DNA of 12,401 nucleotides from a virus. Taxonomy: Duplodnaviria > Heunggongvirae > Uroviricota > Caudoviricetes. A program made the translations under genes and the position numbers. Below, in pieces: positions 262 to 9,437 of the stretch; positions within the stretch are counted from its first letter, which is position 1, and every line of letters starts with the position of its first letter. The stretch lies in the IMG/VR virus record IMGVR_UViG_2597490253_000016; one strand, given 5' to 3'. The notes beneath the pieces are model-generated. The model was not told the origin of the DNA. It ran no database searches and saw only the letters and a list, made by a program, of their open reading frames with translations.

Positions 262-816
262 TCAAAACCAGGGAATAGTGGCGGTTGCGCTTAATCCATA
301 ACTACTAAATTCCCCTTTAACCGGTTCTTTGAGCAAATCACCATGACGGATAAACAACTTGAACAGTTGCTGACTCGACAAACTCTTCATATTGAGAAAA
401 GGTAAATCAGTCCGCTGTTCAGCCTGCGTCGCCAGTCGTTCAATTGCCTGTTCTTCAGTTAGCCAGCCTTTTTTCACTGAACGCCTTAACAGACGCTGAG
501 GGTTACTTTTAACCTGCACGCGGCTTACTACTCGCCAGCCTTTTATTTCTGGAACGGGAGTGACAGGTGAACATTGGCAATAGTCCGTTAGTCCTTTACG
601 CCACGTTGAGGCTTCAAGCGCCTGCAATGCCTGGGCGCTACCATGCAAGCGTAAACGCGCTCCAGGCATAACATTTACGTCAGGGAAACTCACGCCGATA
701 TCGCCTTGCCCTCTTGCACCTAATACCCGATGCAGTTTTGCAAATAACGCCGCCATCAACATTTCGCTCGAAAATTCAGGATCTGGCAGAACGCGGATCT
801 CAAGGTAGTGATCCAT
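262..816 (-). CDS. cas6f: Cas6f (Csy4) crRNA-processing endoribonuclease
   Basis: ORF-track protein contains MDHYLEIRVLPDPEF...GVSFPD...SRVQVKSNP...FKLFIRHG...YGLS...IPWF, co-linear with Csy4 as I recall it. I place the start at the second in-frame ATG (814-816) because it aligns with the Csy4 N-terminus and has an AAGGAG Shine-Dalgarno 6 nt upstream; the ORF-track start at 858 would add 14 residues. Stop TGA at 262-264. Confidence 0.9.
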   Translation of the reverse strand: MDHYLEIRVLPDPEFSSEMLMAALFAKLHRVLGARGQGDIGVSFPDVNVMPGARLRLHGSAQALQALEASTWRKGLTDYCQCSPVTPVPEIKGWRVVSRVQVKSNPQRLLRRSVKKGWLTEEQAIERLATQAEQRTDLPFLNMKSLSSQQLFKLFIRHGDLLKEPVKGEFSSYGLSATATIPWF

Positions 817-826
817 TGGCAGCTCC

Positions 827-1828
827 TTATTCCGATTTCTCACCAAAGACACCGCCACGGATCAGCACAGCCATCACGTAGTGCTGCTGCTCAACGTCTG
901 GTTTCATCCCTTTAGTCACCCAATTGTCCAGTAAGGTATAAAAGTCGAGTTTTTCTTTCGGTTGACGGCAGGCCACACCGCGACTGGTTACAGAACCGTA
1001 AGGTTCCACGGCTATAGCCCCCAATTCATCAACCTTTGGATGCCAGGTATCAATGGTACGTAAAGCATTGCCAATCTTCTGAGAGTGAATACCGGCAATG
1101 CCAGCCACCTGGTATAACACGCGACTTTTACTACTGTTGCTGTCGAGTACCAGCTCCTGCGACGGAAAAACTTCTTGCCCGGCACCAAGACGAACCTGCG
1201 CTTCAACGGTAAGCATCACCCACTCTTTTGCGCTTAATCCTTGCTCTATAATGGCCGCCAGCTGCGTGACCGCTGCCTGTCCCTGGTCAAATTGACGTAA
1301 AGAGAAGTCATGGCTGTTAAAAGTCCATGACGTCTCGTTAGCAGTCACTTTCACCTGGATCTGTTCGGCACCAATGCGGTTGCGCCACAGAAAACGACCA
1401 TTTGCCAGATTCAGCGCATAGCGAAGCGCCAGCTCTTTAAAGCCATGTTCGCTGATGTAACCTTCAATGACCCCGGAAAGCGCCTCCTGGTAAGCCATAT
1501 CATTACATACTGACGGTGTGGATAAATTACCCAGCACACGCAGCGTAAACACCACCTTTAACGTATCCGTATCTACCGGAAGCGAAGCCACATCCACCCG
1601 TTGCAGGTTGGCTTTTTGGATTTCAGCATCCAGTTTTGTGGGATCGCTGACAATGGCATTTTTCAGGCGATTAGAGATGGTTCCGCGGACCGCTTTCTCC
1701 TGAATCTCAATGGGTTGCCATTCATTTCCTTGCCAGTTACCTGCGTACATTACCGCGTCAGAGGTTGCCAGTTTGCGCTCAAATGCCAGTACCGACGCCG
1801 TTTTTATTGCTACAGGAGCCTTTGCCAT
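827..1828 (-). CDS. csy3: Csy3 / Cas7f, backbone subunit of the type I-F Csy (Cascade) complex
   Basis: 333-aa ORF with [94 protein letters not shown], recognisably Csy3-like. AAGGA Shine-Dalgarno upstream of ATG 1826-1828. Confidence 0.93.
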
Positions 1829-1838
1829 AATTATGTCC

Positions 1839-2762
1839 TTATTCTAAATCGTCATATTCATTAAAGGTAAAATCATCAACAACTGGCGTTGCCGAACAAT
1901 AGTAGCCAGTGTCCGTTGTGCGGTAACGCCACATCAGCGCTTGCAAGTCTGTAGTGCGATGTAATCCGCGCCATTCGCCAATGCCATATACCGCTTCAGC
2001 AAAGGCAAATGGCGTCACGGTGTCGCGCGCATTTTCAACTTCACCGGGTGCGTAAACAGGAGAAATGCGTTGGTAGCCACACATTAACGGTACCAGGAAA
2101 CCAGGTATTGGCTTCGGCTGGTATACCCATTTTGCGCTGTTGTCTTCAGCCGGAGATTCGGCCTGATATTTAATCGCGGCGAAATCAAGCCAGGCATCCA
2201 GCAACGAGATGTCGGGATGTTGTTGGTGATGTTCAGCCAGCCATTCACTGCGATCGTAAAGCGCATAACCCGGCATTAACCGCCAGACGATTTTACGCAG
2301 TTGCTTTTCATCTTCAGGCGCATGAAAAAGCTGCGGATCGCGCATACTGACAATGCTGCCGCCCGCCAGTTTGTGGCTCTGGCAAAGCATTTTCAGATAG
2401 TCACAAAGAACTTTTCTGCCATATTCACCATTGGTGATTTCGCCATTACATTCAATCAGTAGAGAAACCGTCAAGTGCATGCGGCCCTCTTCATTGAACG
2501 AGGCGGTTTTACCTTCTCTGGTTAATGGGTTACGGGTGAGAGCGAACTAAAAATCGCGCCCAGAGCTGTACGCCTGAATATGCTGTTCATGGCTTACTAC
2601 CGCACAACCATCAAAACTTACGCCAAATTCATCCACGACTTTGCGAGAAAGCGCATGGACATAACCGAGAAAATGGGTCATCGACGGGAATCCCCAGGTC
2701 AACCCGGAGACAGCGTTAGCGTTTTCGATGCGTATATGGGGTAACAAGAGCAGATAACTCAT
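1839..2762 (-). pseudogene. csy2: Csy2 / Cas5f interrupted by an in-frame amber (TAG) codon at 2547-2549
   Basis: Two ORF-track fragments (2547..2762, 71 aa; 1839..2480, 213 aa) are in the same frame. Translating the gap by hand gives ...[37 protein letters not shown]..., so Cas5f-like similarity runs straight through the stop (plus-strand cta at 2547-2549). Full length would be 307 codons. The ATG (2762-2760) overlaps the csy1 stop in an ATGA arrangement. A sequencing error or amber suppression cannot be excluded from sequence alone. Confidence 0.7.
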
Positions 2763-4066
2763 TTCAGCGCCTCCTGCAAAACAGCTTCCATTTCACGCAT
2801 CCGTTGAGCGAACAGAGACTGGCTGCGCCACTCTTTTTGTTCGACAGCGCCTACGTCAAAACTGGATTTTTTCAGGCGATAGTTCAGCCAGCGTGCGAAA
2901 TCATCGGCGACAGTTACTTGCCAGTCGTTTTTCTCACGCTCCTGTTTGAAAGTCTCATCTGAGAGGCTTCGCCACGGGTCCAGCCAAAGTTGTTGGTGGC
3001 GAGGTAAGTCTGGTGATTGTGCGGACCATCCCTGCCATTTTTCTTGCTGAAAAGCGGATGCCTGCATGAACAGCAAATCGATCAACTCATCAATATATTT
3101 CGCCCGCACAGTTCGGATATGGACATTATTTATGTCAACCTTCAGTAAGTAGGTCATCTGGGCGACAATGCCTGAAGCCGCCCGATTGAAATCGCCGCGT
3201 AGGGAAAAAATACTGCGCATGTTTTGTGGCGCGCGATCCAGCGTCGCCCAGGTGGGCGGCATTGACGGCAACAGCCAGACACGGCCACCCCGCACACTAT
3301 TGAGCAAAGAAATATTCTGCGGTTTTGTGCCGCCAAAATGCATTTCGGCAAGATTAGGAAACCAGATATCTGGCTGGGAGTGCCATTTTCCTGCTTTGCG
3401 GGCATCGCGAATGGCTTTCGACTCCTCACTAAAGCGCACGGCGGTTAGCTTTTCATACATCGCCTGCGCCAGTGAACTGGAAAACAGTGGGCATAACAGG
3501 TGATAACCATCCGCAACAGGGAAATAGATTTGTTTCGCCAGTTTATGGCTGGAAGGCCGTCCAGTAGTCCATGCCTGGCTAAACCCAGCTACCCACAGCT
3601 CCAGTTGCACTTTATCCTCTGCAAACGTACTTAATGCCTGATAATCACCACGCTTCAGGCTGGCAAGCAGTGAATCTCCGTTCACATCGGTTTGTAGCAA
3701 CTTTGCTACGTCAAGTGCAGCGGCGTTACCAATCGCGTCAGTAGCGACATTCGCCAACGATGCTGTGTTTAAATAGCTTTCGTTAGCGGAGGTTTCCAGA
3801 TAAAAGCTACTGGCTTTAGAATCACCATGACTGAATTTAGCGCCATGAGTGACTAATTTGATTTGCCCGGCACGCTTTGCCGCATCCGTTAACCAGTTAC
3901 GTGGCAAGTAGCGTGCTTCGAGTTCCTGCCGCTCCTGAGCGATAACGCTGGCGTCCTCGCCCTGTTCCACTCGCTTTGCGGCTTCTTTTTCAAAGGCATC
4001 GATTTTGGGTTGCCTTCGCGAAGCGATGTATTCAGTAATAAATTGTATTAGCGCCGTTTTTTCCAT
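2759..4066 (-). CDS. csy1: Csy1 / Cas8f, large subunit of the type I-F Csy complex
   Basis: 435-aa ORF immediately upstream of csy2 with ATGA overlap; size and operon position match Csy1 (about 434 aa in Pseudomonas aeruginosa). Strong AAGGAG Shine-Dalgarno 6 nt upstream of ATG 4064-4066. Confidence 0.9.
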   Translation of the reverse strand: MEKTALIQFITEYIASRRQPKIDAFEKEAAKRVEQGEDASVIAQERQELEARYLPRNWLTDAAKRAGQIKLVTHGAKFSHGDSKASSFYLETSANESYLNTASLANVATDAIGNAAALDVAKLLQTDVNGDSLLASLKRGDYQALSTFAEDKVQLELWVAGFSQAWTTGRPSSHKLAKQIYFPVADGYHLLCPLFSSSLAQAMYEKLTAVRFSEESKAIRDARKAGKWHSQPDIWFPNLAEMHFGGTKPQNISLLNSVRGGRVWLLPSMPPTWATLDRAPQNMRSIFSLRGDFNRAASGIVAQMTYLLKVDINNVHIRTVRAKYIDELIDLLFMQASAFQQEKWQGWSAQSPDLPRHQQLWLDPWRSLSDETFKQEREKNDWQVTVADDFARWLNYRLKKSSFDVGAVEQKEWRSQSLFAQRMREMEAVLQEALK

Positions 4067-4208
4067 ATCGGCTCCTTTTCGTTAATCCATCAAGTCGAAG
4101 TTGCTCCCTGATTTCACTGAAAAATCTCCGTAGCCCAACATGGCTTCAGTACAACTGACATACACAGCAAAAGGGACAACACCAGTGGTGATCACACAAA
4201 CAAACTCT

Positions 4209-4235
4209 CCTAGAGATATCTTCTAAAAGATATTA
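4209..4235. promoter_or_regulatory. Putative operator: CC-PAM-flanked partial protospacer matching the seed of the mini-array spacer, overlapping an inverted repeat
   Basis: Plus strand CC(4209-4210)-TAGAGaTATCTtC(4211-4223) is identical to mini-array spacer positions 1-13 except positions 6 and 12. Overlaps inverted repeat ATATCTT-N4-AAGATAT (4216-4233) in an AT-rich region about 145 bp upstream of the csy1 start. Confidence 0.4.
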
Positions 4236-4282
4236 TTAAATCTCATGTAATCACCATAGGTGATATTAAAGCAACTTAATAT

Positions 4283-4311
4283 TTGCCACGCAATAGTTGA
4301 AGCACTAACAT
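4283..4311 (+). promoter_or_regulatory. Candidate sigma70 promoter for the crRNA-like RNA
   Basis: TTGCCA (4283-4288, 5/6 match to TTGACA), 17-bp spacer, TAACAT (4306-4311, 4/6 match to TATAAT); predicted start near 4318, at the start of the first degenerate repeat. Motif match only. Confidence 0.25.
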
Positions 4312-4317
4312 ACCCAA

Positions 4318-4392
4318 ACTGCCTTGAGCAGCTTAGAAATAGAGGTATCTCCGGATACGGACTTGTAAACTGCCGTACAGGCAGCTCGCGCC
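4318..4392 (+). ncRNA. crRNA-like RNA gene: degenerate two-repeat mini-array (psiR1-psiS-psiR2), candidate CreR/CreA-type regulator
   Basis: psiR1 4318-4339 ACTGCC-TTGA-GCAGCTTAGAAA (last 12 nt identical to the repeat 3' end, including the 8-nt 5' handle CTTAGAAA). psiS 4340-4364 TAGAGGTATCTCCGGATACGGACTT (25 nt). psiR2 4365-4392 GTaaACTGCCGTACAGGCAGCTcgcgcc (20 of the first 22 positions match; Cas6f hairpin CTGCCGTACAGGCAG intact). Opposite strand to the main array and cas genes; ends 3 nt before the cas3 stop codon. Confidence 0.55.
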
Positions 4393-4395
4393 CCA

Positions 4396-7300
4396 TCACA
4401 TGTTGCGAAACACACCTAACCAGGGGTGATAACGCCAGTCATCGACCGCATCTTCTTCACTGACGGGTACTCTCACCTCCGCAAACTTTTCCCCAACGTT
4501 TGCTATCTCACAACTTTGCTTATCAGCTAAATTCAACAAAACGTGTTGGTAATCCATCACGCCCCAGCAAGCGACGCCGCTGGCGCATCTCACCTCTTCT
4601 CGCCTGAAATTCCCTTGCGCTTTACGCTCGTTGTCGCCCGTGCGGGAATAGAAACGCGCTTCGCTTTCTTCATCATCCATATGCAGAAAAAACACCGCCT
4701 CCGGCAAAGGGGAATAACGAAATGGCGTCTGGCGCTGCATCCAGCCGTTCCAGCTTAGCGGTGCACGCCACCATTGCGCCGCCACCACATGTTTGCTTTT
4801 ACTGCTCATCAATTCGGCGGATAAACGACTATGTTCTAGCTCCGCCAGTTTGTTGGCATTATTGGCAGACAGGATCCGCGGCAAGGCGTTAATCGTCCGG
4901 TAGTCCGCGATCGGAATCAGTTCGCAAATATCGTGGCTATTCAGCAAGTGTTCTTTTGTTTCGAAACCAGGCTTACAAAATGCGGGGGCTTTTTTCTGCA
5001 ATGATTTGATATTGCTACGCAAAATAACCAGATTCTCACTGGTCGGCACATTTCTACGGTGGCGCTGAATACGTCCGGCAAATTGAATTATCGAACGCAT
5101 GGAGCTTGGTTCGATAATTCCCCAGTCCGCATCCCAGTCACGCCCCACTTCTATAACCGATGTCCCCAACACCACAAACAGATGGTGCGATTCCGGACGG
5201 TTATGTAAGGCATCTGCGATATCTTCGTTGTTCCAGAAATCGAGTTCGTTATGACGAGTAAAAGCGCGATCCAGTCGCTTCTCAATATCTGAACGCACCG
5301 CCAGCGGATGTCGGGAGTGGTAAACACAGTAATGAATGCAGACATCTTCTGGTGAAGGAATGGCAATCAGGGCTTTGGTCACCGCAACCAGTGGATTGAT
5401 ATTCGCGAAGCGCACCAGGCCCAGCGAAACGGTTTTACCGCTTTCGTGTCGCTGGCGATGCGCCTGATGCAACTTCAGCATTTGCGTATGCACCGTCTGG
5501 GCCACACTTTCGGTAACATCTTGTATCGCGCCTGATGCTGATGAAACCGAAGCTACACGCCCGAAATGCAGTCGTTCTTTTTCAGCCAGCATTACCGCTC
5601 GTCGTGCAACAAATTTGGCATGAGCATCACGAAACCCAGGTCCGTCGTAAATTTGCGTGGCATCAGCATCTTTTTCATCAAACCAGGCGCAGCATATATT
5701 GACAGGCCTGCCGTTGATACCACAAGACGCCTGCCACATTTTTCGCCCAGCAAGATAAGCCGCGAACAGCGCCTGAATCAAACCTGGCGGTAACGTCGCG
5801 GAAGAAAGTAATACCCGCGTTCCCAGCATCCCGGCCCAGTTCATCAATCGACATACCGCATGAAGATCAGCAATATCAAAGTCATCAGGTTCGTCGAGCA
5901 CTAAATCGCTGGTTAACAGGCGCAACATCGCCGGAAGCTGTTTCCCGCCTCGCACGCCCTCGGTCGCGGAAATAAGATGATCAATCGTCGAGACCAGAAT
6001 CGGCGCGCTTACTAACTCCTTAAGTTTGCTGTCATCCTTCAACCATTTTTCCAGCGCCCCGGTATGCAGGCTGCCTTCGTACTTAACGAACTGTTGCTCC
6101 TCTGCCGGCGACTCTTGCGAAGCACTTCCGCAATCATTGTCTATTTTTTCCTGTTGCCACAGTTGATTAACTGCCGCCGAACCAATCAGTACCGCCAGCT
6201 CATCCTCACCCAGCCCAAGCCGACTGCGCAGAGCATCGCCGGTTTGTAAAGTCAGCGTGCGCAATCCCAGCGCAACGGTAAAGCGGCACCCTTCTCGCTC
6301 GTCGGCAAGTGCATACATAATGCGGGCGTTCGCAAAGGTTTTACCACACCCCGTCGAGGCCATATTGACGCCGAAAAATCCCTCTTCACGACTTCGTTCA
6401 CGTAACGCTCGCGCCACATCCCAGGCTTTATCTTGCCAGCGATAATTCACATCTGTAGCCCGCTGGCTAAAACCTTTATGTCGGGCAATTGCCGGAAGCG
6501 ATGCCCGTGTGTGCATCAGTTGCCGCCCAAGCAGATACGCATGATGCGCGACGCCCACAAGGTGTTCGTCTACCCGTTGTTTGAGCGTGCCGCTTTGGCG
6601 ATCGCTATTTGCCCAGACGATATAATCCGGGTCCTGCCATTTTTGCTGCGCATCGCTTGAGGAATAGTAATGATCGGCAAGCATCAGACAAAAACGCGCC
6701 ATATGTAAGGGGAACAACTGTTCCATCTGCCCATATGTCTTTAAACCGAGCGCGTTGCTTGCCCGGCGGGCTATCTGACGCGCTTTTTCCCGCCAGCTCG
6801 CGCTTTGAAGCGGCGTTCCTGATGGAAACTGCCAGACGTGCGCAAAATCCTGTTGTGACCAGTCATCTCTGCGGTGGTTAACGGCATTCCAGTCAGCATT
6901 AAGTTGCTTCTCCAGCCAACTTTCACACCCTTTACATGATTGTTCCGACTGTGGAGAAAGATTCTCCGGCATTCGATGATGGGAAAGGATCAGCCAGCCT
7001 ACCGTTTTGGCTAATGGTTGCAGCGAACTGAACGGGCTATTTGAAAATTGAGGAGTGTCTTTTTGCAGGCGCTCAAGAATCGCAGATTCATCATCTGCCG
7101 TGAGTTCGCCAAGCTTCGCCAGCCACACATCGTCGGGCCGCTCACCGACAAACGTCTGAAAGAGCCGCAGTGAAATCCATTCATGTCGGTAAGGTTGATA
7201 ACTGCGGGTATTCTTTTGAGTCAGGCTTTGCTGAAAGCTGCGTCCTGATTTACCAAAATCATGAAATAGCCCAGCGATAGCCGCCAGCAGTGCAATACTT

Positions 7301-7629
7301 TCCGCGCACTGCCAGCGATTTTCTTCTTTGTTCACCAGGCTGATTTGCGTTGTTCGATTTGTGGGAACGCGGCCTTGAGCATTAAAGCGACGAATATTGC
7401 CGACAATCCACATCAGCTCCGTTTGCCCATTCTTCTTCAGCCAGTGACAAGCCACTGCGGTATTTCGCCTGGCGGTTTTGCGCAGTAAACGGCGGAGTGT
7501 ATTAACGCCTTCCAGAGTAATCACCGTTTGCCATGCTGCGTCACCAGTGCGTTCGGCAAACTGATCAATAATACGGCAGCTTTCCACGCGAGCATTTTTC
7601 GTACAGCGTGAGATAATTAGGACATTCAT
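4396..7629 (-). CDS. cas3: Cas2-Cas3 fusion (type I-F Cas2/3): N-terminal Cas2 domain, HD nuclease, superfamily 2 helicase
   Basis: 1077-aa ORF. HD motif in LLAAIAGLFHDFGKS, Walker A in MASTGCGKT, DExD-like LVLDEPDDFD; N-terminus MNVLIISRCTKNARVE...RNTAVACHW resembles Cas2. Start ATG 7629-7627 overlaps the cas1 stop (ATGA). Length matches I-F Cas2/3 (about 1076 aa in P. aeruginosa). Confidence 0.93.
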   Translation of the reverse strand: MNVLIISRCTKNARVESCRIIDQFAERTGDAAWQTVITLEGVNTLRRLLRKTARRNTAVACHWLKKNGQTELMWIVGNIRRFNAQGRVPTNRTTQISLVNKEENRWQCAESIALLAAIAGLFHDFGKSGRSFQQSLTQKNTRSYQPYRHEWISLRLFQTFVGERPDDVWLAKLGELTADDESAILERLQKDTPQFSNSPFSSLQPLAKTVGWLILSHHRMPENLSPQSEQSCKGCESWLEKQLNADWNAVNHRRDDWSQQDFAHVWQFPSGTPLQSASWREKARQIARRASNALGLKTYGQMEQLFPLHMARFCLMLADHYYSSSDAQQKWQDPDYIVWANSDRQSGTLKQRVDEHLVGVAHHAYLLGRQLMHTRASLPAIARHKGFSQRATDVNYRWQDKAWDVARALRERSREEGFFGVNMASTGCGKTFANARIMYALADEREGCRFTVALGLRTLTLQTGDALRSRLGLGEDELAVLIGSAAVNQLWQQEKIDNDCGSASQESPAEEQQFVKYEGSLHTGALEKWLKDDSKLKELVSAPILVSTIDHLISATEGVRGGKQLPAMLRLLTSDLVLDEPDDFDIADLHAVCRLMNWAGMLGTRVLLSSATLPPGLIQALFAAYLAGRKMWQASCGINGRPVNICCAWFDEKDADATQIYDGPGFRDAHAKFVARRAVMLAEKERLHFGRVASVSSASGAIQDVTESVAQTVHTQMLKLHQAHRQRHESGKTVSLGLVRFANINPLVAVTKALIAIPSPEDVCIHYCVYHSRHPLAVRSDIEKRLDRAFTRHNELDFWNNEDIADALHNRPESHHLFVVLGTSVIEVGRDWDADWGIIEPSSMRSIIQFAGRIQRHRRNVPTSENLVILRSNIKSLQKKAPAFCKPGFETKEHLLNSHDICELIPIADYRTINALPRILSANNANKLAELEHSRLSAELMSSKSKHVVAAQWWRAPLSWNGWMQRQTPFRYSPLPEAVFFLHMDDEESEARFYSRTGDNERKAQGNFRREEVRCASGVACWGVMDYQHVLLNLADKQSCEIANVGEKFAEVRVPVSEEDAVDDWRYHPWLGVFRNM

Positions 7630-8609
7630 TGGTCAGCCTTAGCCAGTGCCTGGGCCGTTTCCTGCAGAGAGGTGATCATGACATCCAGCGCATCCGCTTG
7701 TTGAAAGATATTAACACAGCGTTGACGAAACTCCTGAGCATCTTCTCCCGCCATTGCGGCAATAAATGCTTGCGGCATAACAAGAGCATCTTTAATCAGA
7801 TCGGCAAGGTCAAAAACAAGCCCGCCGCGACGTGTCTTACCATGCATTACAGCTAAACCGTGCGGGATACCTGTTACCCACGCCGCCACTGCTGCCAGTC
7901 CATAAGCCAGATAATTCCCTTGATCGAGGAAGCGGTTGGCCATATCGATACCACCGCCCCGTTTTGCGCGAGTGAAATCGCCATACCCCACGGTTTGACT
8001 GACCATTTTGTATAACGCTTTAGTCAATTTGGCCTCAACGAGCATAAGCTGCGTATGGTTTTCTGCCGCGTCTATTTCTTCACAAGTACGATTCAGGAGG
8101 GTATGCAGCGCATTAACATCAGGTTGAAATGCGTGTTCACGCAGCATTTTCGAGCTGGACCAGTGCTTATCGATATGTGTCAGGCGGATTAACTGAAAAC
8201 GTTTCGCGGCAGCAAGTCGTTTGTCTTCAACAAACCAGAAAGAAACCCACTGCTGGAGATACTCTGTAGGGCGATATTCACTTTGTGGGCTGAGCCAGGA
8301 GACATCAACATCCACTTCATTTGCTGAATACAGCGGCGTGCCATCCGTACCACAAAAGCCTACCATCACCCCGGCATGAGCAAATTCACGCATCGCCGCC
8401 TGGGTAACGGAAGTTCCCATTCCCAGCATCAACGCCGTGGTATTCGCAATGGGGATATTCCAGTAGTACGACTCTTTACCTTCGCTGGTAACATACTCCA
8501 CCCGCCCACCATTCACCTGTACCCGGCATTTTTCCAGATAATAAATATTGGCGCGTTTGGAGTGGAGAATGGTTTTGAGATCGGAAGGCGTAAGGTAATT
8601 CGAAGACAT
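7626..8609 (-). CDS. cas1: Cas1 integrase (type I-F)
   Basis: Protein contains LKTILHSKRANIYYL, RVEYVT, YWNIPIANTTALMLG, FCGTDGTPL, SWLSPQSEYRPTEYLQQWV, NRFLDQGNYLAYGLAA, GIPHGLAVMHGKTRRGGLVFDLADLIKD, strongly Cas1(I-F)-like. Start placed at the second ATG (8609-8607), which has AGGA 5 nt upstream; the ORF-track start at 8615 (2 codons longer) is an equally possible annotation. Confidence 0.92.
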   Translation of the reverse strand: MSSNYLTPSDLKTILHSKRANIYYLEKCRVQVNGGRVEYVTSEGKESYYWNIPIANTTALMLGMGTSVTQAAMREFAHAGVMVGFCGTDGTPLYSANEVDVDVSWLSPQSEYRPTEYLQQWVSFWFVEDKRLAAAKRFQLIRLTHIDKHWSSSKMLREHAFQPDVNALHTLLNRTCEEIDAAENHTQLMLVEAKLTKALYKMVSQTVGYGDFTRAKRGGGIDMANRFLDQGNYLAYGLAAVAAWVTGIPHGLAVMHGKTRRGGLVFDLADLIKDALVMPQAFIAAMAGEDAQEFRQRCVNIFQQADALDVMITSLQETAQALAKADQ

Positions 8610-8781
8610 AAACACATCCTGTGATTATTTTATATTTGAAGGTATTGGGCTTAGTACAGCATTGATTTATGTGCTGAAAATTGATTTCCATCGCAATTAT
8701 TACGATTGTTATTGCGTGCTAACGCTAATGGTTTGAAGTTGAGAGTGTCATTGCACGACCAAACGTCTAACACTATCGTAG
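8610..8781 (-). promoter_or_regulatory. AT-rich region between the array's terminal repeat and cas1; probable cas operon promoter/regulatory region
   Basis: About 170 bp non-coding and AT-rich with short direct repeats (ATTGATTT twice, ATTATTACG/ATTGTTATTG). No confident -35/-10 assignment could be made by eye. Confidence 0.3.
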
Positions 8782-9289
8782 TGTGAATACTGCCTGTACG
8801 GCAGTGAACAAGGAGAGACGGTCGCACTCTTCAACGTTCAGTTTCTAAGCTGCCTGTACGGCAGTGAACTGGCGGCAGGAGGGAGGACTGCTGCGCCATC
8901 ATTTCTAAGCTGCCTGTACGGCAGTGAACGCAGAGATTGAGCCATTCCCCGCAGCCGTGCTTTTCTAAGCTGCCTGTACGGCAGTGAACCCGCGCGGCTG
9001 AAATTGAGAGCCTCCGGCTGATTTCTAAGCTGCCTGTACGGCAGTGAACCAATAAAATATCAAAGGCGGTTTTATGCTGGCTTTCTAAGCTGCCTGTACG
9101 GCAGTGAACTTGTGCCTGTTTTATGCGGGCGCTCTGGTTTCTTTCTAAGCTGCCTGTACGGCAGTGAACACGCTGCGCAGTACCCTGACCGGTGCGAACG
9201 TTTTCTAAGCTGCCTGTACGGCAGTGAACGGTTTCGCCTCAATGATCTGCATATGGCGTCATTTCTAAGCTGCCTGTACGGCAGTGAAC
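8782..9289 (-). CRISPR. Type I-F CRISPR array: 9 repeats (8 identical 28-bp plus 1 degenerate terminal) and 8 spacers of 32 bp
   Basis: Plus-strand unit TTTCTAAGCTGCCTGTACGGCAGTGAAC, i.e. minus-strand GTTCACTGCCGTACAGGCAGCTTAGAAA (canonical I-F repeat). Repeats at 8842-8869, 8902-8929, 8962-8989, 9022-9049, 9082-9109, 9142-9169, 9202-9229, 9262-9289. Terminal repeat 8782-8809 reads GTTCACTGCCGTACAGGCAGtATTcAcA in crRNA sense (degenerate 3' end), which fixes the orientation: leader at the high-coordinate end, transcription toward cas1. Confidence 0.97.
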
Positions 9290-9437
9290 TCAAATACTAC
9301 ACGTTTAGCCCGTTGTTAATAAAGCAAAACCATCTCAATCTCCTGCTGCCACCCTTTTTTATCCTTACCTACCCGCAGCACTAATTATCAATAACTTAGC
9401 ATCATCATTAAAAAAAGGGTCTGAACCTCCTCCCCCC
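9290..9437 (-). other. Putative CRISPR leader
   Basis: AT-rich non-coding stretch between the first (leader-proximal) repeat and the clpA terminator. Orientation inferred from the degenerate terminal repeat at the opposite end. Confidence 0.55.

Follow-up and report, generated by a model that had tools for sequence, protein, structure and literature searches.

Type I-F1 CRISPR loci were described to carry mini-arrays between cas3 and cas8f, oriented opposite to cas3, whose targets are flanked by a CC protospacer adjacent motif (PAM) and mismatch the guide at positions 6 and 12, and for Pseudomonas aeruginosa YL84 the mini-array was shown to repress the Cascade promoter with Cas3 being dispensable (Shmakov et al., 2023, PMC10120712). 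Such autorepression by CreR was defined by Liu et al. (10.1101/2023.03.10.532045); the guides of bacterial I-F CreA and CreR elements are 23-27 nucleotides (nt) long, and CC is stated as the type I-F PAM in the literature on I-F Cre elements. The P. aeruginosa modules CreTA1 and CreTA2, which combine CreA guides with proline-codon CreT toxins, also occupy the gap between cas2-3 and csy1 (bioRxiv 10.64898/2026.06.02.729485). Here, we analyzed a DNA stretch of 12,401 nt (IMG/VR record IMGVR_UViG_2597490253_000016, hereafter the window), which by NCBIfam assignments is an Escherichia coli type I-F locus adjoining clpA/clpS, and found that a mini-array and a protospacer-like operator within its 329-bp cas2-3/csy1 gap (4067-4395) constitute, as judged from sequence comparison, a selected guide-target pair. 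We consider it probable that the mini-array is a CreR/CreA-type mini-CRISPR, and that binding of the Csy complex to the operator without cleavage represses an operon made up of a small open reading frame (ORF) and the csy genes.

The match between guide and target is confined to the PAM-proximal segment. The plus strand reads CC (4209-4210) followed by TAGAGaTATCTtC (4211-4223), which is identical at positions 1-5, 7-11 and 13 to the spacer-like guide of the mini-array, psiS (TAGAGGTATCTCC..., starting at 4340 right after the repeat handle), so that within the first 13 nt only positions 6 (G/A) and 12 (C/T) are mismatched, just as the initial annotation of this DNA had described. When CCTAGAGNTATCTNC was searched with at most one mismatch on both strands of the 12.4-kb window, one match was found versus 0.01 expected, and the calculated chance expectation for such sites is ~0.15 per 5-Mb genome; the earlier rough estimate of ~1e-5 for a 330-bp region is of the right order for 13 specified bases. 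Two of the earlier figures have to be corrected: the distal positions 14-25 match at 4 of 12 (16, 18, 22 and 24) rather than 5 of 12, which equals the chance level, and the starts of guide and site lie 129 nt apart instead of about 100 nt. The site is found 142 nt upstream of the csy1 ATG, that is, a PAM-flanked and seed-limited target in the same locus as its guide, and a CRISPR RNA (crRNA)-like RNA from the mini-array would bind to the minus strand, which is the non-template one when csy is transcribed.

The element itself consists of two degenerate repeat-like sequences around one spacer-like sequence, and is situated inside the cas locus and outside the arrays, as in CreR/CreA elements. 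The first repeat, psiR1, carries a weakened hairpin CTGCCTTGAGCAG (4319-4331), which has 4 bp in the window versus 5 bp in relatives, and an intact 8-nt 5′ handle CTTAGAAA (4332-4339); the second, psiR2, is laid out as GTAAA, a perfect Cas6f hairpin CTGCCGTACAGGCAG (4370-4384) and then CTCGCGCC, which replaces the handle. Both the handle and the Cas6f hairpin, whose retention characterizes CreR/CreA elements, are therefore kept in the mini-array, and in psiR1 of relatives the stem CTGCC/GGCAG is kept with a variable loop. The guide of 25 nt is short compared with the canonical 32-nt spacers of the locus. Among Rfam families, only psiR2 was matched, by a partial and sub-threshold CRISPR-DR4 hit (E 0.037). 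A promoter-like site precedes the mini-array, with a predicted transcription start at ~4318, at the foot of the psiR1 hairpin, and across four E. coli variants its TAACAT is invariant and its TTGCCA nearly so. In some variants (L001 and L003; L numbers denote the compared loci), the cas3 stop is separated from psiR2 by a GC-rich hairpin, CGCGCCCC-GTGAA-GGGGCGCG, which could serve as a terminator for the two convergent transcripts; its second arm is missing from the window (4385-4400).

The initial annotation had assumed that every sixth guide position is left unread, and the conservation footprint within Escherichia, compared among E. coli variants, E. whittamii and Escherichia sp. E1V33, is as expected from this, with only the PAM-proximal segment pairing. 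The PAM CC and positions 1-5, 7-11 and 13 are invariant apart from a coupled change at position 5, and the flanks of the target are heavily diverged on both sides. Position 6 varies in spacer and target alike (spacer/target G/A, G/G, A/A, G/T and A/G), at position 12 an unchanging C of the spacer faces T, A or G in the target, and the distal half of the spacer, itself invariant, bears no relation to that of the target. In a second E. coli gap class, ~80% identical to the window gap and read in six genomes (CFSAN064035, 2014C-3097, ETEC-2264, ATCC 43896, B7A and OkiPb01698), spacer and target alike carry T at position 5, a compensatory G-to-T double change.

The same arrangement recurs in ten other genera, where the psiR2 element likewise borders on the end of cas3. 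About one third of 51 Csy1 loci fetched from species-representative genomes have a gap whose mini-array is adjacent to the stop codon of cas3, and in the others cas3 directly adjoins csy1; in three of the closest Csy1 relatives from outside E. coli, the gap is small or missing. Mini-arrays were found, among others, in Citrobacter, Scandinavium, Enterobacter, Atlantibacter, Leclercia, Stenoxybacter, Cedecea, Buttiauxella and Rahnella, and their spacers are mutually unrelated across genera. Nevertheless, 13 of 18 mini-array spacers have in their own gap a strict CC-flanked site matching all ten read seed positions, on the same strand and ~80-150 nt upstream, and for 3 further spacers a CC-flanked site deviates at one or two seed positions. 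The non-cognate control of 918 spacer/gap pairs gave 13 matches, all between relatives with a common seed. The position-5 double change, the distinct cognate pairs across genera and the clean non-cognate controls together show co-evolution of guide and target.

These comparisons also bear on whether the element could be a decayed CRISPR remnant, functionless and matching its own locus by chance or history. The degenerate repeats, the unmatched distal part of the spacer and the persistence of the element in a clade without functional csy2 (see below) would fit such a remnant; the 0.01 matches expected in the window, the sixth-position pattern of conservation combined with the position-5 double change, and the independent spacer/target pairs of many genera would not. 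Because cognate sites recur across genera and the non-cognate controls are empty, neither chance nor mere decay can explain the pairs, and the remnant explanation is disfavoured by the comparative data to the point that we regard it as very improbable. The view of the initial annotation that the spacer is a CreA/CreR-like guide is thus borne out by the conservation in Escherichia, the double change at position 5, the co-variation across genera and the architecture of the published modules. Every sequence-level feature of a CreR/CreA-type guide is present in this element, and those of the known toxin types, the CreT RNA and the KilAC protein CreP, are not. As a side observation, two adjacent CC-flanked guide sites occur in Enterobacter sp. 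ECC-175 (L019, ~2285-2310; 0 and 1 seed mismatches) and in Cedecea colo (L039, ~2210-2260; 1 and 1 seed mismatches), and these paired sites, ~21-23 bp apart, may be tandem operators.

The inverted repeat that had been noted at the site, ATATCTT (4216-4222)-N4-AAGATAT (4227-4233), is indeed present in the window, but it is not conserved in the other Escherichia variants. It would be possible to regard this repeat (4216-4233) as a protein operator bound by a dimeric transcription factor that controls csy, the likeness to the spacer being incidental, given that the repeat exists and lies in an AT-rich regulatory gap. However, its right arm is unconserved in other Escherichia where the seed half is conserved, one half simply coincides with the seed's palindromic GATATC core, and the targets of other genera are without such a repeat. 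We therefore hold a protein operator to be highly improbable, and the inverted repeat is lineage-specific and probably incidental. One nucleotide of the same region has a consequence for annotation: protospacer position 14 (window 4224) is C instead of T in a frequent E. coli variant, represented by 864 contigs. This exchange removes a minus-strand TAG, and gene callers consequently predict a 104-amino-acid (aa) 'hypothetical protein' antisense through the mini-array, which is most likely an annotation artefact.

Based on the guide-target pair, we propose that the CreR/CreA-type mini-array could regulate its own effector genes as follows. First, the mini-array would be transcribed rightward from its own promoter (4283-4311), and Cas6f would cut both repeat hairpins to release a crRNA-like RNA of ~53 nt (8-nt handle, 25-nt guide and 20-nt hairpin), predicted to begin with CUUAGAAA (4332) and to end past the psiR2 hairpin (4384). 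This RNA would then assemble with Csy1-3 and Cas6f, and the complex would read CC at 4209-4210 and pair only at positions 1-5, 7-11 and 13 of 4211-4235, on the non-template strand. With the R-loop left incomplete, Cas2-3 would not be licensed to cut, and the bound complex would act as a repressor. Since the site lies ~20-47 nt past the predicted csy-strand start, overlaps with the small ORF's ribosome-binding site and is followed by no terminator before csy1-cas6f (no terminator-like structure was found between operator and csy1 by scanning), binding would lower transcription of both the small ORF and the effector operon, providing a negative feedback that senses the free Csy complex.

How the bound complex would repress depends on the position of the csy-strand promoter. 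The best match of a position-weight scan is a candidate with a predicted start at ~4258, whose -35 stands back to back with that of the mini-array promoter. Its -10 is at the same place in 5/5 Escherichia sequences scored, the variants reading TGnTAATAT, TGnTAGTAT or TAATAT, and this TG-extended -10 is conserved ~30 nt upstream of the site in Escherichia. It is the only csy-strand promoter-like element conserved in the genus, and it ends ~52-54 nt upstream of the PAM complement. In type I CRISPR interference, pairing of the guide with the non-template strand is the orientation that blocks elongation. As the best candidate promoter is upstream of the site, occlusion of the promoter is less likely in Escherichia than a roadblock. 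A more direct arrangement exists in Atlantibacter, Leclercia, Stenoxybacter and Rahnella: the PAM complement GG is directly followed by a csy1-facing consensus promoter (TTGACA or TTGCAA, 16-17 nt, TAnnnT), and there a bound complex would be expected to occlude the -35. In the minus-strand transcript of the window, moreover, GGUGAUUACA (4246-4255) can pair with UGUGAUCACC (4187-4198), and the resulting long-range stem surrounds the operator and spans the start codon of the small ORF; an analogous stem of partly different sequence is possible in other Escherichia. RNAalifold gave only three pairs with double changes and a slightly unfavourable covariation term for this stem, the single-sequence z-score is -2.5, and a conserved leader RNA structure is thus tentative.

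The state of the circuit in the window strain is affected by csy2, in which an in-frame stop at codon 72 (2549-2547, minus strand) splits the translation into two ORFs, and RefSeq annotates an 'internal stop' for csy2 in ATCC 11775. Of 60 E. coli genomes sampled, ~26 have a csy operon 100% identical to that of the window, among them UTI89, APEC O1 and PMV-1, and therefore the nonsense codon is clade-wide; LF82 has the same gap with csy2 intact. A complex without Cas5f (Csy2) should not assemble, so the effector is probably dead across the whole clade and, owing to the nonsense codon, the feedback loop is probably open in the window strain. Several points weigh against repression by the mini-array as proposed here. 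The mini-array and its target are intact in this large csy2-pseudogene clade, where current selection for this function is impossible. Weakened to 4 bp, the window's psiR1 hairpin makes processing by Cas6f an assumption. The csy-strand promoter is predicted by weight matrix and unlisted in a stricter promoter scan, which found only the mini-array promoter; csy transcription may also come by read-through from cas1-cas2-3. Finally, the Escherichia site overlaps no recognizable promoter, unlike those of several other genera.

The small ORF located between the operator and csy1 adds a further layer. In the window, it encodes 37 aa from a GTG start, with a Shine-Dalgarno AGGAG (4211-4207) that overlaps the PAM complement. 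Five other Escherichia variants have an ATG-started version of 27 hydrophobic residues, MIITTGVVPFAVCVVVLKPGWATEIFQ, with a Shine-Dalgarno AGGTGA at 7 nt; the window version differs by a 1-nt insertion, which leads into a second frame that is open in all variants and yields the 37 residues. In the 27-aa ORF, 6/10 substitutions fall at third codon positions and 6/6 of these are synonymous (binomial P ~0.08), which is suggestive of coding. This second, overlapping frame (...CTEAWLGYGDFSVKSGSNFNLMD) shows two synonymous-type changes, making the coding frame uncertain. The slot is occupied by small hydrophobic ORFs in other genera as well, among them a conserved ~49-aa family (e.g. MKPKQMLCVLCLLTSATLWVKPIAIQNNFYGQAPGMQISGSIFTINLGM) between target and csy1 in Buttiauxella, Cedecea and Leclercia, which combines a basic N-terminus with a hydrophobic stretch and a KP motif. 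This family has one database entry, a 'hypothetical protein', and the 37-aa product is in GenBank only as a hypothetical protein deposited once. None of these small ORFs, the ~49-aa family included, matched Pfam, NCBIfam or PADLOC. By alignment, the Escherichia ORF and the ~49-aa family seem to share a layout (hydrophobic stretch, KP and SGS-x-F), but tblastn returned nothing at E values up to 10, and homology between them is not claimed.

Toxin genes occupy exactly this slot in published I-F loci, and a CreTA/CrePA-like addiction was considered accordingly, in which the small ORF is the main target of regulation and encodes a short hydrophobic peptide toxin, the Csy complex with the crRNA-like RNA serves as the antitoxin, and loss or inhibition of Csy frees the toxin. 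This would be compatible with autoregulation, as the ORF apparently shares a transcript with csy1. The small ORF begins 12-16 nt past the PAM complement, its Shine-Dalgarno overlapping the latter, and its 27-aa ATG form is retained with synonymous third-position changes in five Escherichia variants and has hydrophobic counterparts in the same slot of other genera. Moreover, 6/6 sampled E. coli with the intact 27-aa ORF have intact cas genes, and E. coli SZQ1 lost csy1 and csy2 along with the gap, in agreement with a toxin; however, this cas-integrity contrast represents about one evolutionary event on each side. The hydrophobic look is usual for ORFs in AT-rich gaps, and two overlapping open frames leave the coding frame in doubt. 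The window ORF itself is frameshifted, starts with GTG at a long Shine-Dalgarno spacing, and lacks homology to any toxin family in the databases searched.

With regard to the known toxin types, neither tandem rare or Pro-Pro codons nor the hairpin typical of CreT RNAs were found in the ORF sequences, which contain single prolines only; with its 27-37 codons, the ORF was not assigned to the CreTA RNA toxins. Nor was it assigned to CrePA, where a KilAC protein of ~100 aa lies between target and csy1, as the small ORFs matched no family. The csy2 nonsense codon, fixed clade-wide alongside exactly this gap, shows that effector loss is tolerated with this gap version, contrary to what CreTA/CrePA addiction predicts, and speaks against a functioning addiction toxin, for this lineage only; where the 27-aa ORF is intact, all cas genes are intact as well in 6/6 sampled loci. 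We therefore regard an addiction function of the small ORF as unlikely, yet as an explanation to be kept in mind. A broader version, which we find doubtful, would be that in Enterobacterales I-F loci the first gene controlled by the crRNA-like RNA encodes a 27-49-aa membrane peptide, with the ~49-aa family and the Escherichia 27-aa ORF as examples, that this peptide is a CRISPR-repressed, type I-like protein toxin with the Csy complex as its antitoxin, and that a 1-nt insertion and ATG loss in ST95/ATCC 11775 remodelled the peptide and permitted csy2 decay.

The gap was found in 239 of 5426 complete E. coli genomes, as a single copy in each and chromosomal in every case, and it is 100% identical in ATCC 11775, UTI89, S88, APEC O1 and LF82, among others. 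In E. coli SZQ1 (L181, locus 6127-8244), one deletion fuses a truncated cas3f to csy3, having taken the cas3 C-terminus, the entire gap with mini-array and small ORF, csy1 and csy2 together. In the RefSeq records of L173, L175 and L003, the locus tags jump one number between csy1 and cas3f (e.g. RS16455 to RS16465), which suggests that a feature in the gap was once annotated and later dropped. Phage or plasmid mimics of the guide were also sought: a scan of viral contigs for handle plus seed gave 118 stretches, 0 of them with an I-F hairpin nearby, and no match was obtained when the mini-array was compared by BLAST with phages and the whole gap with plasmids. The coordinates of all features are compiled in the table.

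Table. Features of the E. coli type I-F locus in the window and of related small ORFs in other loci (L numbers denote the compared loci and have their own coordinates)
Feature	Position	Strand	Basis or remark
CC, type I-F PAM on the non-target strand	4209-4210	plus	sequence read
Protospacer-like operator	4211-4235	plus	positions 1-5, 7-11 and 13 (4211-4223) match psiS
Mini-array promoter-like site, TTGCCA (4283-4288), N17, TAACAT (4306-4311)	4283-4311	plus	promoter scan
Candidate csy-operon/small-ORF promoter, TTGCGT (4293-4288), N17, TG-extended -10 TTTAAT (4270-4265)	4265-4293	minus	weight-matrix scan
psiR1, degenerate repeat	4314-4339	plus	compared with array repeat GTTCACTGCCGTACAGGCAGCTTAGAAA
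psiS, spacer-like guide TAGAGGTATCTCCGGATACGGACTT	4340-4364	plus	25 nt
psiR2, degenerate repeat	4365-4392	plus	exact hairpin match to array repeat
Small ORF, 37 aa, GTG start (4195), MITTGVVPFAVYVSCTEAMLGYGDFSVKSGSNFDLMD	4082-4195	minus	stop 15 nt before csy1 ATG
27-aa ORF in Escherichia variants	L001/L002 346-429; L004, L006 2371-2454; L007 2370-2453		
~49-aa family in other genera	L040 2332-2481; L039 2332-2481; L031 ~2340-2490; L037 2329-2478		
csy1-csy2-csy3-cas6f effector operon, presumed regulated genes	262-4066	minus	NCBIfam and translation
Csy1	2759-4066	minus	NCBIfam
Csy2, two pieces	2547-2762 and 1839-2480	minus	NCBIfam
Csy3	827-1828	minus	NCBIfam
Cas6f	262-858	minus	NCBIfam
Cas3f (cas2-3)	4396-7629	minus	NCBIfam; stop codon 3 nt from psiR2 end
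Cas1f	7626-8615	minus	NCBIfam
Bona fide array, nine repeats GTTCACTGCCGTACAGGCAGCTTAGAAA	~8783-9290		period 60 = 28 + 32

The E. coli type I-F system (LF82, UTI89, APEC and ETEC lineages) is a much-used natural system. If the proposed circuit holds true, Csy levels would be set by a negative feedback responsive to anti-CRISPRs or crRNA load, one species would offer natural orthogonal guide/operator pairs with TAGAG and TAGAT seeds, and the retention of the cas2-3/csy1 gap would be accounted for. Furthermore, the conserved enterobacterial small ORFs between operator and csy1 could be a further CRISPR-guarded toxin or leader peptide.

Compared with the described systems, the E. coli element resembles the P. 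aeruginosa CreTA1 and CreTA2 modules in architecture, as they share the crRNA-like gene in the cas2-3/csy1 gap, the handle in psiR1, Cas6f hairpins in both repeats, a short guide (20-26 nt in P. aeruginosa), a CC-flanked target with mismatches at positions 6 and 12, and a small gene after the target; CreTA1 also shares its promoter with the csy genes, as proposed here for the E. coli ORF. However, no sequence similarity exists between them. The P. aeruginosa CreT is a 15-nt mini-ORF with Pro-Pro and a GC hairpin, whereas the E. coli ORF has 27-37 codons, and the target lies ~30 bp upstream of the -35 in P. aeruginosa CreTA, in contrast to its location downstream of the predicted start in E. 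coli. Addiction, in addition, is evidently absent in this E. coli lineage, unlike in P. aeruginosa CreTA.

The YL84 mini-array and CreR RNAs and the E. coli element have in common the position between cas3 and cas8f (csy1), the orientation opposite to cas3, a PAM plus seed-limited match upstream of cas8, and a proposed role in cleavage-free autorepression of Cascade, demonstrated for YL84, while the organism and the spacer are different and E. coli has a conserved small ORF between target and csy1. The Acinetobacter CreTA (WCHA45) and CrePA (A. baylyi ADP1) resemble it in the cas3-csy1 gap of ~330-400 bp, the creA with two degenerate repeats and the CC-flanked target, and both in Acinetobacter and for the E. 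coli Csy1 relatives the gap is missing from close relatives that have a continuous cas operon. In Acinetobacter, the toxin gene is downstream of the target, CreT being a bactericidal small RNA and CreP a 103-aa KilAC protein, but the E. coli ORF matches no family. The haloarchaeal type I-B CreTA is similar in its degenerate mini-CRISPR guide, in PAM plus seed pairing and in Cascade repressing the neighbouring promoter, and differs in subtype and domain of life, as well as in its toxin, a rare-codon RNA that sequesters tRNA. No mention of a self-regulatory element in E. coli I-F loci was found in the searchable literature, to which the supplementary lists of the mini-array survey do not belong. 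In conclusion, this class of mechanism is already published for the I-F systems of Pseudomonas and Acinetobacter, and the E. coli element is a well-supported further case.

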